A program made the translations under genes and the position numbers. The notes under the pieces are model-generated. The model was not told the DNA's origin. It saw only the letters and a program-made list of their open reading frames with translations, and did no database searches. A DNA stretch of 44,578 nucleotides from a virus. Its lineage: Duplodnaviria > Heunggongvirae > Uroviricota > Caudoviricetes. This document shows, in pieces, positions 2,502-32,537 of this stretch (positions are counted from its first letter, which is position 1; each line of letters starts with the position of its first letter). The stretch covers positions 1 through 44,578 of the IMG/VR virus record IMGVR_UViG_2728369181_000006; one strand, given 5' to 3'.

Positions 2502-4160
2502 TTACCAACTCAAAAGAATATTTACATCACCTACGCTAATAGGATTTGGTGTGACATTTTGAAATGTTACCCTGACGATATTATCGGAAACAGCAATAGC
2601 ATCTGAAATTATACCTATTGGGAGATCATTCAACACTGTCATTTGTAGAGGAACTTCATTAGATATGATATATCCGGTCAATGTTCTTTGCATTGAGAAC
2701 CTGCCATTTGCTGAAATCGTGCCAACATTCAACGTTGATTTTACTTTCTTTCCTGAATATGTAACACCATTCAAATCTATATGTGAGTTATTTATTAATG
2801 TCAACGCAGAATATCCTGAAAAATCACTATTAGCCCCGGCCTGCCTTACTACAGAGAATTTATCAGCTCGTATTGCAAAGTCACCAGTTGCTTCCGATGC
2901 ATTAATGTTATTGGTAACAACAACACCTCCATCAACACAGTTAATAGCATATGTTGCATTTCCTTTTATCGTTATGTTTCTTAAACTTAAATAAGATGCA
3001 AACTGGCATGTGGCAAAAGCAATTGCTCCATCTGATAGATACCCATCTGAAAATTCAACAGACGAAGAATACCTTGATCCTATACACGATTGAGTTCTCG
3101 GTTTAAAAATAGATCCGCCTTTAATATAACAATCCGCCGCATGCTCAACCTTAAGAGAGTCTTCCCCTGAATTGTAAGAAGTGAATTCTGTGCCCCTCAC
3201 GCTTGCACTGTACACACATTCAAGGGAAATATTAGCATTTGATATATGAACCCCATTAACCCCAAATTGAGATCCAGAGCCAGAAACAAGAACTCCACAA
3301 ACAGAGCCTCCATTTACAATCAAATTGTTTGCATCCCAAACTACGCAACTACCACATTGTGAATCAGGGTAGTATCCACCTCCGATAATGAGTCCGTAAT
3401 CACCATCTGTTTCAACAGCAACATTTTTTATGCTGTATATATTTGATCTAAATTGTATTCCTTTTGTTGTTTTTATTATGGAATTTATTGGTTTTGCCAC
3501 AACCCCGTTAACCGGACCTGAAATTATACCATTGTGACTCATATCCAATGTTAATACATTTCCATCCTTGGAAATTATCATCGCTCCACATGAAATGTCT
3601 CTCCTGCCAGAAAGTATACAATATTTACCAACATGAAAATTATCTGCATTCTGAACAGAAACTTTAAAAATACCAGTCAACACATCATAAGAAACATCAT
3701 ATACATTAACAGGACTATAATCCACACCCAATATATTCAGAGGAATATTATCAAACTCATCATAATGTGAATAACCATCAGGAATGTGAATATACTGCCC
3801 GTATTCTATCTGTGATCTAAGCTGATCGGGATCGTACTTCAGCACATTAGGAAAATAGAACTGCAGAGCGCCGTACGCATCATAAACAGCCATAGAATGG
3901 CCTTGCACAGTTACGAATTTGGCAATCTGTCCGTTATATACCGGATAACCAGCAGCGTTAATGATGATTGGTTGAGAAACAGGAACGTGAGAGCCGTCTT
4001 CGTTCTCTACATAAACCGGAATCTGGTTTTCAGGGTTTACCGGGTCAGTGTCAATTTTACCGATATAAATTTTACCATTGGCTACGGCTTTAAAAGAACG
4101 CGCCATAGTGAAGAGTTGCGAAGGCATACTCACTACAACATTAGCTGTAATGTCTGTCAT
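2502..4160 (-). CDS. Tailspike protein (P22 gp9-like N-terminal head-binding domain, divergent receptor-binding domain), 552 aa
   Basis: N-terminus [11 protein letters not shown]...[34 protein letters not shown] closely matches the P22 gp9 head-binding domain; the remainder is divergent and Gly/Ser/Asn-rich. Confidence 0.85.
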
Positions 4161-4338: not shown

Positions 4339-5217
4339 TCAGTAGTTATGTACTGAAGGAGGCAATTCTTTATTCTTAAGTCTCATCCATGCGGAAAGAT
4401 TCGTTGGTCCGTCTGGCTCATTGATATCAACATCTCGTGTGTGGTTGATTAAAACGTCTCTCGCCATTCCGATAACATACGAGAACTCATGACCGTAGTC
4501 GTAGCATCTGCCGGAATAGTTCGATTGAATTTGTTTTAATGCCGGATACAGTTCGCGGAATAATGCCTGTGAGCGGTTGGCATAATCCCATAACCATACA
4601 AGGCTGTTTGCTTCTTTTGCAGAAAGCTCGTTGGTTTTCTTCTCTTGTTTGCCGATGAATTCGCCTTCAAGCACTACCCTGTGGATGTACTCTACGGCTT
4701 GCGGGATTTGTTCAATTGAAAGTTCATCAATGCTGTCAATACCAAAACGCTGATGAACCATATTGTATGCATCGTCATAGCGAAGTCCTTTCTTTCCTAC
4801 CAGCATGTTTACTGCATCGCGTAGCGGTGTTCTTTCCTCAACAGTGGTTTTCTTTCCTTTTACATACTCGCCATGTTTGCGAATTGAAGGCAGAACTTCT
4901 GCTGTTACCCACTTGCGGAATTTGTGCGGGACCGAACCTTTATTGACTGCATCGCGGCAGCGCAGAACCAATGTATACATACCTGATTCGCTCACAATGC
5001 TTAGATTCTGCTCACCACCAAGGGTGTAACTTAAAGTTACTCCCTTTTCATCGTCATCAAGTGCAGTAAGCGCCTTGCGTGAGTTAGTCAGGGTTAAAGC
5101 ATCACAAACATCTTTTGCTACAAACCACGGCTCACCGCACTTGTTGATGACGCGGATTTCACTGTCGCCGAATTTGAAGATGGTGAAATCGTTTTGTGCC
5201 TTTGCTATACTTTTCAT
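4339..5217 (-). CDS. ant: Antirepressor Ant (Bro-N/AntA N-terminal domain)
   Basis: Bro-N-like N-terminus ([11 protein letters not shown]...[14 protein letters not shown]); position directly downstream of arc as in P22 immI. Start placed at ATG 5217 with AGGAAA RBS; the ORF-track start at 5283 is GTG. Confidence 0.75.
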
Positions 5218-5218
5218 G

Positions 5219-5290
5219 TCAATATTTCCTAATCCGATTTGTTGATACCGAAGCCCTGACTGTTCCCGCAGTTGGGGCTTCACTGTTTTG
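5219..5290 (+). ncRNA. sar: Candidate Sar-like antisense RNA covering the ant ribosome-binding region
   Basis: Plus-strand hairpin (gaagccc...gggcttc, about 5250-5282) followed by a T-rich tract, about 70 nt downstream of a weak promoter-like -10 tatact at 5206-5211. Geometry matches P22 sar, which is antisense to the ant RBS. Confidence 0.3.
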
Positions 5291-5449
5291 ATTTCTTTGC
5301 CGCATCAAGCATCACTTCTGAAAACGTGCGCTTGCCACTGAATACTCTTTCTCTTCTCAATTTTTCGTTCGTGCCAAATGATTCGCCATGAACAAAATTT
5401 GGTCTTAAAATGGTAATCGCAATCTCTTTGACTACTGCATCCAAGCGAA

Positions 5450-5602
5450 TCACACCGTTACCCCCTCTCTCTTCAGGCTGTCTATCAGGCGCTTGATAAC
5501 CTCTGAGTTAAACGACCTGCACTCTTCCTTTGCCCTGCTACCGATAGCATCCTTTAACGACTGCGGCATCCTTACCAAAATCTTACTTATTTCTTTCTCC
5601 AT
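5450..5602 (-). CDS. arc: Arc-like ribbon-helix-helix repressor, 50 aa
   Basis: Sequence MEKEISKILVRMPQSLKDAIGSRAKEECRSFNSEVIKRLIDSLKREG resembles P22 Arc (GRSVNSEIYQRV...); GGAGGG RBS; divergent from mnt. Confidence 0.75.
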   Translation of the reverse strand: MEKEISKILVRMPQSLKDAIGSRAKEECRSFNSEVIKRLIDSLKREGVTV

Positions 5603-5716
5603 GTTACCCTCCACACAAACAACTCTTTTCGAATACAAAAGATAGCAAAGTGAGTATATCTAGTCAAAATTTTTTTGCATACACTTTGATATCAAATTGA
5701 ATACCAAAGGTGTGAT
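5603..5716. promoter_or_regulatory. Divergent Pant/Pmnt-type promoter-operator region of immI
   Basis: 114-bp AT-rich intergenic region between divergent arc and mnt with inverted repeats (caaagtg ... cactttg); exact operator boundaries not resolved. Confidence 0.5.
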
Positions 5717-5971
5717 ATGGCAAAAGGTGTGTCAATTTCTCCAACTACGGTAAGAATCCCTGAATCTTTACGCGAGGCTCTTGCTGTCAGAGCATCAAAA
5801 AATGGTCGCTCTGTTAACTCCGAGATCGTCATGATTTTGCAAGCCGCGATTGATGAAGAAAAATCACCAAGATCAATAGAAGGTTTTGCTCAACAAGAAT
5901 CTGAAAAATTTAGGGAGGCTCTTCTTAAGACTCTCAGCAGCATGTACGGAGAAGATAAAAAACCCACCTGA
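5717..5971 (+). CDS. mnt: Mnt-like ribbon-helix-helix repressor, 84 aa
   Basis: Arc/Mnt family motif NGRSVNSEIV; size and divergent arrangement with arc-ant as in P22 immI. Confidence 0.75.
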   Translation: MAKGVSISPTTVRIPESLREALAVRASKNGRSVNSEIVMILQAAIDEEKSPRSIEGFAQQESEKFREALLKTLSSMYGEDKKPT

Positions 5972-5985
5972 CGGTGGGTTTTATT
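5957..5985. terminator. Bidirectional rho-independent terminator
   Basis: Sequence aaaaaa cccacc tgac ggtggg ttttatt; serves convergent mnt (+) and the 140-aa gene (-). Confidence 0.65.
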
Positions 5986-6406
5986 AGTGCTTGTATAGCT
6001 TGAACTCCCTGTCGAGCCATAAGACATAAAAAGTGGCTCCTATCTTATAACCAACCATAGGTGCCTTAGAGCAAAATCTGAACGCAATGAAATCCACATC
6101 TTGAGTAACATGCTTAGGAATCGGAGCCTTTATCGCGTTTCTGGCAATTTTTTCCGTCCCAAGCCCGTGTTTATCAGATTTTCGTATCTCATCCCATGAC
6201 ATCTGACTTAACCTGAACAGCCTATCTGCAAATGCTGCCTTTTCATGCTTTTGGCAGCAATCTAGGCAATACCCCTTTTGTAGGTATCTAAGAGAAAATA
6301 CAGGCGGACTTTTGTCTACATCATGAGATTCGTGATGGATAGAGAGGCCAACAGTAGCAGAGCTCTCTTTATCCCTCTGTTTTATTCTTCCCTTAACTCT
6401 AGGCAT
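5984..6406 (-). CDS. Hypothetical 140-aa protein, candidate toxin partner of the Panacea-domain protein
   Basis: ATG 5 nt after the stop of the upstream Panacea-domain gene; basic protein with C-terminus ...GYKIGATFYVLWLDREFKLYKH loosely reminiscent of RelE/ParE-fold toxins. No confident family assignment. Confidence 0.45.
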   Translation of the reverse strand: MPRVKGRIKQRDKESSATVGLSIHHESHDVDKSPPVFSLRYLQKGYCLDCCQKHEKAAFADRLFRLSQMSWDEIRKSDKHGLGTEKIARNAIKAPIPKHVTQDVDFIAFRFCSKAPMVGYKIGATFYVLWLDREFKLYKH

Positions 6407-6411
6407 ACACG

Positions 6412-6861
6412 TCAGTTAATTAACGTTTTGAAAAAACCTTTCATAGAATCAAGTGTGATTTCTTGGCTAACCGCACCCTCAATGTAAGCATCTTTCCATG
6501 GCTGCTCTTCGTGAGTCATATTGCGCAGTTTCCAGGCAGAAAACTGACCATAAACTTTATACACCTCATCCAGCAATTCAATTTCATCTTCACTGAATTT
6601 TTTAGCGTCAAAGTTTTCTGGCGCAAGTAAAGCTCCGTTACCACAGTCCCTATATTTACGATACAATTCAGGAACTACTGGCCCATGCATCCAGGCTTCA
6701 ATTTTCTCATTAAATAGCGGCTTACCCAGAAGAACCAGAGAAAACCCTTGGGCATAATACGTCAACTTCTGAATTTTTAGGTTAGAGATAATGTCGCCAC
6801 TTTCTTCATCGCAATGCGCCAAGAAGTAGTCGGCGACATCAAAACAAGTGAGCATAAACAT
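6412..6861 (-). CDS. Panacea-domain (DUF4065, SocA/PanA-like) putative antitoxin, 149 aa
   Basis: Motif KIQKLTYYAQGFSLVLLGKPLF...EAWMHGPVVPELYRKY matches the DUF4065 signature as recalled; ATG start with GGAGGT RBS. Confidence 0.7.
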   Translation of the reverse strand: MFMLTCFDVADYFLAHCDEESGDIISNLKIQKLTYYAQGFSLVLLGKPLFNEKIEAWMHGPVVPELYRKYRDCGNGALLAPENFDAKKFSEDEIELLDEVYKVYGQFSAWKLRNMTHEEQPWKDAYIEGAVSQEITLDSMKGFFKTLIN

Positions 6862-7229: not shown

Positions 7230-7724
7230 GTGTCTGATTCTATGAGTTACGCTGTGCTAGTTGCCGCAACTCTATTTCTGGGGATAGGGTTGCAGATTGC
7301 GTGGTTCTTTTTTTCTAGTTTTATTAAACGCAAAAGAATTGAATCAAGGATATCTGAGATTTCTATTGCTATAGGGAAAAATGCTGAAAATCCAGAGAAT
7401 GATGCCTGCGCACTGAATTACCTTAAAGAAAAGTTTTCCCCTGAAAAATTTGAAAATAGAATTACTGATGCTCTTGGATTGGTAATATCAGTAATTCATA
7501 TGCCACTAAGTTTGCTGATAACAGTGTGGTACTTCGCCATGATCGCCGGAAGAATATTTGGTTTCATGAATATAGATCCTGTAGTTCTTTGGGTTCCAAT
7601 GATACTGCAATTGTTGTTAAGCTTTGCTATCTTTATTTTTTCTGTTTTTATAAAAATTGTCTTCGGAAGATACCCCGGAGAAGCGAAGGGATTTAATAAA
7701 GAATTCATAAAAACTATAAAATAA
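7230..7724 (+). CDS. Inner-membrane protein, putative superinfection-exclusion protein (SieA-like by position)
   Basis: GTG start 5 nt after AAGGAGG; three predicted hydrophobic helices; sits between the gp16-like gene and immI, where P22 carries sieA. Confidence 0.4.
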
Positions 7725-7746: not shown

Positions 7747-9573
7747 CTACTGCCGGGTAGCTTCGTTAACTAAGAGCGGGCGCACGGCAGTAGCCGCCTG
7801 ATTTAGCGCTCTTTCATAAGCTGGCGTTCCAGCTTTAGTGTTTGCCAGACGTAAGAGCGCATTCCTTGCTGCTTTGGATTCATACAAGCGCATCATTGCA
7901 CCGAAACCAGCCTCAAGCCCCATTGATATGCCAAGAGTCGTAGTTGCGCCAATCGTCCTTATCCTGTTGGCTTGCGATTGCCCCGTCTGAGTTACTACAT
8001 TTGCGGTGTCTGATCTTGCTGTTTGCTGTAGAACTTCATGAAGAGCATCAAGTTCTTTCATGTGCTTTCCAGAAAAAATAGTGTTGTAAATTTCACCGCC
8101 TGACTGAGATTTCAGCTTATTAACTTCCGTGATGAACTTGGCTGGAGAGTCACCGGCCTTTTCCGCTATTTTGCTGACGTAAGCTGCACGCATAGCATCT
8201 TTCCCTTTATCATCCAATGCGCTCCAGATTCGTTTCACGTCAGATGGTTTTCTGCTTAATACAACAGTATTTATAAGTTCAGGACTGGCTTCACTGCTTG
8301 CCTTGTTGAGCTTGTTAGCAATGTTTTTATTAAGCACCTTATTATAAACGTTTGCATAATCGGAGTTTGCTTTAAGGTATTTTGCTGCGTCTGATGCACC
8401 GAGGTTTTTTGCAACTGCGTTACGAAGGTCTTTTGACATTGCATTCTCTACCATATTGGTAGCTGCTTTTGCCTGGTTGGGGAAGACCATAGCATCCCCC
8501 TGAACATTAGATCTAAATGCTGTTCTGTGCTGACGCAGGAGATCAAACGTAACATCCAAATCAGTTGCAGGGTTTGCTAATTCTTCACGTAGGTTACGCA
8601 AGGATGTAAGCAGGCTTTGATTGGCAGACGTCCCAAGCCGTTCCTGTCTTGCGATCGCTGTATTCAGAGCATTCATGGTATTTGTGGTATCAACTGCGGC
8701 ATTACCCATTTTATTGGTGACGTCATTGATAACAGCGCCAGCGGCATCCTTCCGTCCCCTTAACGTGGTGGTCAGAGATTTCACCACATCATCAGGGTTG
8801 TACTCACCAAAACGGTCAAAATAATTGCTTACCAGCTTACTACGCGTTGCATATTGCTCCGCTCGCTTTGAGCCTGTCCCGAGCAAAGCCCCCTCAGCAT
8901 CCTGAGTAAGTCCGCGAGTGAAAGCATTTTTCGGCGGGATAACATCAGATGTCATTGGTGTCACGCCCATCGATTCTGATGTGGCAATTTTCTTCGCCAC
9001 TTCTGGCGCAATATCACCTTTTATAGCCGTTATTCCACGCCCTATTCCCTTTGCTGCTGCGGAAAGAACACCCTGAGCGGCAAGGTTAACTCCGGCATTT
9101 TTAGCTGCATTTTGTGCGAAATCACCTTTCTGATTTGCGGCCTCTGCCAGTGATCCAATAGCCATGCTTCCTGCCGTTCCAACTCCTGGAACTAAATACC
9201 CGCCAATTGTTTCTCCAGCTTGAGCGTAAGGGTCTGTCGGTCGATCGACTGGACGATAGACATCATCCAATACTTTTGGCCCACCAAGCCCCTGACTGAT
9301 TGCATTAATCAGACTTGCGCCACCCTGCAATACGTCAAATGGTATGTTTACCAGACCACGACCAGCCTGTTCTGCAATTTGCCCTGCACTTTGACCACCA
9401 GTGAGCCAGTCAGTAGCTTTTCCCACCAGAGATTGTTCTTCTGGCTGCGATTGGTTTTGAGTGGATTGATCACCAGAAGACAGCATCTGAGCAATGCGAC
9501 GTGCTCCCTCAGTATCGCCGGCAGCATCAGCATTCCTTAACGCCGTCATCAACTGTTCACGACTATAGGCCAT
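7747..9573 (-). CDS. Ejection (injection) protein, P22 gp16-like, 608 aa
   Basis: Size and position after the gp20-like gene; Ala/Gly-rich; ATG start overlaps the upstream stop. Confidence 0.75.
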
Positions 9574-31119: not shown

Positions 31120-31416
31120 TCAGAACTCCATCTGGATTTGTTCAGAACGCTCGGTTGCCGCCGGGCGTTTTTTATTGGTTAGTCCATCAAGCGCATACTT
31201 AAAAGCCCTGCTAATCGGACTGATGTCTGATGCCATTCCGAAAGCACACAAGACCGAAGCAATAAACCTCCAGTCCGTTCTGCTTATCTTCGATTCATGA
31301 CAGCCAATCATCTTTGCCAGACCGCGCTGGGTAAGCGTTGACAGGTTGATGAGTAAATCTGTTTCTGCGCGATCAACGTCACGCTGTGATAGTTTGCTGT
31401 AACTTGTTTGTTCCAT
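31120..31416 (-). CDS. cII: CII-type transcriptional activator (chimeric: divergent N-terminal part, lambda-identical C-terminal 19 aa)
   Basis: C-terminus TNKKRPAATERSEQIQMEF matches lambda CII as recalled; position directly after cro/nutR. Confidence 0.7.
   Translation of the reverse strand: MEQTSYSKLSQRDVDRAETDLLINLSTLTQRGLAKMIGCHESKISRTDWRFIASVLCAFGMASDISPISRAFKYALDGLTNKKRPAATERSEQIQMEF

Positions 31417-31820: not shown

Positions 31821-32537
<717 letters not shown>

Follow-up and report, generated by a model that had tools for sequence, protein, structure and literature searches.

Whether the short interval upstream of ant in a P22-like prophage carries, on the strand opposite to that gene, an antisense RNA of the sar type is the question raised by this locus, which lies in a window of 44,578 nucleotides (the whole stretch of DNA analysed, IMG/VR record IMGVR_UViG_2728369181_000006) representing a P22-like prophage with lambda immunity. 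The sar RNA of phage P22, described by Liao et al. 1987, Wu et al. 1987 and Schaefer and McClure 1997 (as cited in PMC2629481), acts post-transcriptionally, preventing the synthesis of Ant by binding to the ant mRNA at its ribosome-binding site (PMC10732415); Mnt, Arc and sar all belong to the control circuit of immI (PMC2629481), and sar reads have been detected in abundance during infection by P22 (PMC13397905). The corresponding genes of the window are as follows.

4339..5217, minus strand: ant, 292 aa from ATG 5217..5215, with the Shine-Dalgarno (SD) sequence AGGA at 5230-5227, 9 nt upstream; assigned by Pfam and phrog_245
5280..5453, minus strand: orfX, 57 aa, between arc and ant; phrog_17642, E 1.3e-43
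5450..5602, minus strand: arc homologue, 50 aa from ATG 5602; Pfam Arc, E 5e-12; 39% identity to P22 Arc
5717..5971, plus strand: mnt homologue, 84 aa; Pfam Arc domain; 34% identity to P22 Mnt over residues 11-77

The mnt and arc genes are divergent, with ant downstream of arc. The first-pass annotation, made from the sequence alone, had described mnt and arc as intact, which they are, and had suggested a complete P22-type immI circuit. This holds insofar as mnt, arc and ant are all intact ORFs in the expected places, but an extra ORF, orfX, lies between arc and ant, so that the two are not adjacent, and Ant is P22-like only in its C-terminal 171 aa. These departures from the P22 arrangement are small and of a mosaic kind.

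We propose that positions 5218 to about 5289 on the plus strand of the window constitute the sar gene of this prophage, encoding a cis-antisense RNA that would block ant translation, and put the probability of this reading at roughly 0.88. The elements involved are these.

5183..5211, plus strand: Psar-like promoter, with -35 GTGAAA at 5183-5188, a 17-nt spacer ending TGC (TG at 5203-5204) and -10 TATACT at 5206-5211
5218..5289, plus strand: predicted sar RNA of about 67-72 nt; RF00262; 5' end by P22 homology, 3' end between 5284 and the T run at 5286-5289
5218..5246, plus strand: stem-loop I, a 7-bp stem (5218-5224 with 5240-5246) with apical UCCU at 5227-5230; from the fold and covariation
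5250..5289, plus strand: stem-loop II and predicted intrinsic terminator, with stem 5250-5263 / 5268-5281, loop TCCC and T run 5286-5289; from the terminator scan

The identification begins with the Rfam family of sar RNA, RF00262, which matches 5219..5284 on the plus strand at E 5.5e-11, its 63.7 bits exceeding the gathering score of 43. The alignment is not truncated, covering model positions 1-68 of 68, and this is the sole Rfam match above the gathering score in a scan of the whole 44.6-kb window. A transcript start near 5219 had been predicted; the Rfam alignment gives 5219, and the P22 annotation carried over by alignment gives 5218, directly after the complement of the ant ATG (5215-5217), which places the RNA antisense to the ant leader. 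The suggestion that such an RNA would be antisense to the ant ribosome-binding site, as in P22, is borne out by the end-to-end family match and by the presence of the SD sequence inside the predicted RNA. Alignment to P22 sar and Psar, a check named beforehand, succeeded at both levels, since RF00262 aligns at full length and the annotated features of P22 and epsilon34 align as well. Family membership, position, promoter register, sequence and structure are thus all observed directly in the window, and its sar is typical of an RNA family that has already been described and curated, and lies where such genes are usually found.

The hairpin reported on the strand opposite to ant is present at 5250..5281 (plus strand), although the pairing noted earlier (gaagccc…gggcttc) is only the outer 7 bp of a 14-bp stem. 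Its arms, GAAGCCCTGACTGT and GCAGTTGGGGCTTC, form 14 pairs, including three G-U pairs, closed by the 4-nt loop TCCC, and the tail 3' of the stem-loop reads ACTGTTTTGA. The T tract described after the hairpin is also there, but the U run is set off from stem II by four nucleotides (ACTG), which leaves the efficiency of termination and the exact 3' end of the RNA uncertain. The hairpin had been placed about 70 nt downstream of the ant start codon; measured along the plus strand it begins 33 nt and the T run ends 72 nt away from that codon, but in the sense of ant this is upstream, in the 5' leader. According to the terminator scan, 1.6 terminator-like hairpins are expected by chance in the 1.8-kb region, and this count is what would speak for a functionless chance hairpin. 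Such an origin is refuted and we assign it virtually no probability, given the E value of the Rfam match, a fold z score of -7.35, and the rarity of the 32-nt hairpin pattern, which occurs once in the window and in 0 of 100 shuffles even with three mismatches allowed, while exact copies are found in at least 120 viral contigs and the sar region has a match in 710 of 5426 complete E. coli genomes.

The 72-nt plus-strand RNA (5218-5289) folds into two hairpins with -29.7 kcal/mol, compared to -12.05 +/- 2.4 kcal/mol for its shuffles (none of 200 as good), and the minimum free energy and centroid structures are identical. The UCCU at the top of hairpin I (5227-5230) is the complement of the ant SD sequence. 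The minus-strand RNA reaches only about -19 kcal/mol (z -2.6), 10.7 kcal/mol weaker, because G-U pairs of the plus strand become A-C mismatches, and we therefore regard the structure as specific to the sar strand. For this reason, and because no T run follows the stem on that strand, a hairpin acting on the ant (minus) strand was considered and rejected.

Homologues were collected by scanning viral contigs with the hairpin pattern (at least 120 stretches) and adding annotated phages, giving 127 usable loci. Among the matches listed, these 127 loci comprise 28 distinct 5' halves, with at least seven versions of the stem I sequence; every one of the 28 adopts this two-hairpin fold, and its stem I begins immediately after the start codon of ant. 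Across 20 distinct aligned homologues, four of the seven stem I pairs show changes in both partners, and 91% of the stem I cells pair; for the whole structure, 97% of cells are paired, and shifting the 3' partners by 1-3 columns lowers this to 31-51%. These figures are conservative, as MAFFT misaligned stem I in two loci (L035 and L039) whose cells count against the structure. Stem II carries no covariation evidence, being invariant by construction since loci were selected with the hairpin pattern.

The putative promoter lies within ant codons 2-12 and is oriented opposite to ant, apparently convergent with Pant. In the alignment its columns coincide with those of the annotated P22 Psar (L001 1482-1510), a match of sequence only. 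Among the matches listed, 123 loci share its register (-35 xTGxxx, 17 nt ending TGn, TA[TCA][AG]CT, 3 nt, CAT), with -10 variants TATACT, TACACT and TAAGCT, and with spacers and surrounding ant codons that differ; the combination of promoter and stem I type found in the window is the second commonest (32 of these 123 loci). The -35 element GTGAAA is weak, agreeing with the consensus at four of six positions, and the promoter scan returned three promoter-like sites in the 1.8-kb region, which equals the chance expectation, so the case for Psar is made by homology and register, not by the scan. It can also be observed that the extended -10 (TGC TATACT; 5203-5217 region) overlies ant codons 2-5, with the consequence that Ants whose N-terminal domains are unrelated (Bro-N in the window, a different one in P22) share the opening residues M-x-S-I-A. 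The retention of this motif across unrelated N-termini suggests that it is the promoter, not the protein, that has been under selection.

The weakness of the -35, the chance-level promoter scan and the overlap of the -10 with Ant codons, which would make its conservation partly a protein-level effect, are also what could be expected of an inherited but silent relic, that is, a sar present by descent whose promoter is unused or whose RNA no longer controls ant. Under this explanation the conservation would reflect recent acquisition or coding overlap (ant codons 2-5 and the orfX stop), and it could further appeal to the fact that expression in this prophage is argued by analogy with P22, and that RefSeq annotates no ncRNA at an identical site in E. 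coli O104:H4. However, stem I has fully diverged from that of P22 and yet its pairing has been kept through double changes, the S-I-A codons that overlie the -10 persist in Ants whose N-terminal domains are otherwise unrelated, and ant, arc and mnt are all intact. We therefore consider a silent relic unlikely, and prefer to interpret the locus as a working sar gene.

The sar promoter, RNA and terminator are annotated in the P22 record (BK000583), and likewise in that of epsilon34. Aligning both to the window requires no gaps between the -35 and the last base of the hairpin, and TGCTATACT, the CAT and stem-loop II are conserved; stem-loop II of P22 differs from that of the window at one loop base, and that of epsilon34 is identical. 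The window resembles P22 sar in its 5' end abutting the ant ATG, its promoter register, the identical TGCTATACT, its length class, the anti-SD sequence atop hairpin I and the same two-hairpin architecture, for which P22 sar gives -29.5 kcal/mol. The differences are concentrated in stem I, GUCAAUA...UGUUGAU in the window compared to GUUGGU...ACUGAC in P22, and in loop I, and they track the differing ant leader and SD sequence (AGGA in the window, GGAG in P22). The score against RF00262 is accordingly 63.7 bits for the window where P22 scores 97.8, and the 3' tails also differ (ACUGUUUU in the window, AACUUUAC in P22).

Placing the sar 5' end beside the ATG at 5217 fixes the true start of ant at that codon, rather than at the GTG at 5283 used in some records. 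We rejected a 314-aa ORF starting at that GTG (4339..5283), which would place the hairpin inside ant, as its over-extension is the sar region itself; it is further ruled out by the alignment of ATG 5217 with the P22 ant ATG and by the AGGA 9 nt upstream. Kapi1 is among the phage records that start ant at the upstream GTG, so that the annotated gene swallows the sar region.

The protein initiated at ATG 5217 contains Bro-N and P22_AR_C domains (Pfam) and belongs to phrog_245, anti-repressor Ant. Its C-terminal 171 aa, which carry P22_AR_C, are 85% identical to P22 Ant; its N-terminal 121 aa have no BLAST similarity to P22 Ant and contain the Bro-N domain instead. The lambda-type cI that had been proposed as the repressor attached to this circuit is also present.

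31824..32537, plus strand: lambda-type cI repressor, presumed target of Ant, 237 aa; PDB 3bdn match

The match of this ORF to the solved lambda repressor (PDB 3bdn) has an E value of 6.7e-151 and spans residues 2-237. P22 Ant is effective against lambda cI (PMC3064807, where Susskind and Botstein 1975 is cited for this), and the Ant of Phi24B, whose C-terminus resembles that of P22 Ant, failed to lift cI-based immunity (PMC3064807). We infer that the Bro-N-type Ant of the window may inactivate its cI. Adjoining the near-lambda cI we also observed a 98-aa cII-like protein at 31120-31416 (minus strand). Its last 19 or so residues, TNKKRPAATERSEQIQMEF, we take to match lambda cII while the remainder differs, which would represent a mosaic joint within the gene.

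Three further candidate elements lie upstream of arc.

5639..5667, minus strand: candidate Pant-like promoter, TTGACT-17-TATCTT with TG; consensus match only
5641-5652: candidate operator half-site, GATAGCAAAGTG, over the -10 of the Pant-like promoter; from the inverted-repeat search
5682-5699: candidate Arc/Mnt operator, a near-perfect palindrome CACTTTGAT/ATCAAATTG (CACTTTGAT then ATCAAATTG) between the divergent genes

The half-site GATAGCAAAGTG is a copy of the half-site of the palindrome, and may likewise be an operator. A two-way terminator hairpin was found by the terminator scan after mnt, at 5959-5982.

With these elements in place, the regulation of ant in the prophage might proceed as follows. 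The Pant-like site (5667-5639, minus strand) would make an arc-orfX-ant mRNA, while Psar, buried in the first ant codons, would fire in the opposite direction to produce an RNA that starts beside the complement of the ant ATG, crosses the ant leader and ends at the 14-bp hairpin and U run. The UCCU in loop I would contact the SD region of ant in the arc-orfX-ant mRNA, where pairing would begin, extending to a perfect duplex of about 67 bp over the ribosome-binding site and up to ant position -1. Such a duplex would be expected to block translation initiation of Ant, and without Ant synthesis the lambda-type cI of the prophage would escape inactivation. Production of the RNA and repression of ant are here extrapolated from P22 and would need to operate in the same manner in the window. 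A comparable arrangement exists in N15, where a small RNA, CA RNA, silences the antirepressor gene after the start of its transcription (PMC10732415); CA RNA and sar both keep an antirepressor gene silent, although CA RNA comes from a different phage lineage. As Ant can act on heteroimmune repressors, sar would help to keep such prophages from inducing themselves or their neighbours.

The gene that ends at the terminator is orfX in the window but arc in P22, which has no gene in the orfX slot. The start of orfX, a GTG, and the stop of arc overlap by 4 nt, and the final bases of the stem of the sar terminator contain the orfX stop codon. No Pfam family was found for orfX, and among deposited phages it was detected (tblastn) in phiv205-1 only. 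A 12-aa deletion remnant of orfX is present in six related loci, and orfX therefore seems to be dispensable. Among the matches listed, an Arc-like gene abuts the hairpin in 67 of 122 loci, and in about 50 of these 122 the position is held by one of at least seven unrelated small ORFs; those occupying the slot elsewhere include Cys-rich CxxC...CxxC proteins of 60-67 aa and ORFs of 73, 74 and 89 aa. These arc-side neighbours (loci L003-L131, at the equivalent of window 5282-5500) reassort freely with all ant-side (stem I) types, which agrees with the high genetic flux attributed to the 'ant moron' of epsilon34 (PMC2629481) and with the 'boundary sequence' of CUS-3.

This reassortment raises the question of whether the 32-bp hairpin is mainly a recombination boundary sequence at which arc-side and ant-side modules are exchanged, or else a one-way insulator that stops stray plus-strand transcription from entering arc and mnt, the antisense RNA being incidental in either case. 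The CUS-3 record does label the stretch 'bsq2; boundary sequence', every stem I type occurs with every kind of neighbour (Arc, orfX or one of at least six further small ORFs, among the loci listed), and both flanks are much less conserved than the hairpin. However, a boundary role is compatible with sar function and leaves the promoter register, the anti-SD sequence in loop I and the covariation in stem I unexplained, and both the P22 RNA and its repression of ant have been reported experimentally, according to literature cited in PMC2629481 and PMC10732415. We thus consider it very improbable that recombination or insulation is the main role of the hairpin, and retain its interpretation as the terminator hairpin of sar. 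A more inclusive proposal, which we put forward only tentatively and consider rather doubtful, is that the hairpin doubles as a recombination joint and the slot between arc and hairpin serves as a cargo site for small genes swapped among P22-like phages (orfX in the present case), co-transcribed with ant under Arc/Mnt control, some of which might modulate immunity or the Ant/sar circuit.

The RNA is widespread among relatives of this prophage. Matches to RF00262 were found in nine of the ten related annotated regions compared (eight phage records and the O104:H4 chromosome), and P22-like phages with an annotated or Rfam-detectable sar include epsilon34, CUS-3, Kapi1, EC.P3, phiv205-1 and Emek. 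EC.P3 and Kapi1 have the stem I type in common with the window, and phiv205-1 has orfX in common with it, while the arc-side neighbours, tailspikes and cargo genes vary from phage to phage, as described for the mosaic 'ant moron' (PMC2629481). The prophage of E. coli O104:H4 2011C-3493 gives the same Rfam alignment as the window, and the 171 bp around sar are 100% identical there, in O104:H4 strains and in several other E. coli, as they are in strain S10; the sar region of the window and its immediate flanks are thus identical in the O104:H4 outbreak lineage. In locus L007 (RefSeq NC_018658.1, O104:H4 2011C-3493), neither a sar ncRNA nor orfX is annotated in region 2568-2801, which is identical to the corresponding part of the window. 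Since sar is unlisted by RefSeq at this identical site, the case is one of an annotation gap and not of a discovery: the immI region of the window holds a regulatory RNA gene that had not been annotated, and the find matters mostly for annotation, with no new biology implied.

In its wider setting, immI lies within the late operon of the window, flanked on one side by the ejection-protein/sieA genes and on the other by the tailspike gene, some of these being assigned by position. SieA (7230-7724) shares 89% identity with its P22 counterpart across the portion compared. A 552-aa ORF after ant (2502-4160, minus strand) lies where related records annotate the tailspike, and a 608-aa ORF (7747-9573, minus strand) lies at the position of the DNA-transfer/ejection protein gene in P22-like records, an assignment by placement only. 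Between immI and sieA we observed a gene pair, both on the minus strand, at 5984-6406 and 6412-6861, in which a gene for a Panacea/SocA-like antitoxin-domain protein (149 aa, PF13274, E 2.8e-24) is followed by one for a 140-aa protein (phrog_8366); the pair probably represents toxin-antitoxin cargo carried by the ant moron. Similar genes are found in epsilon34 and Emek at the position that this pair occupies in the window.
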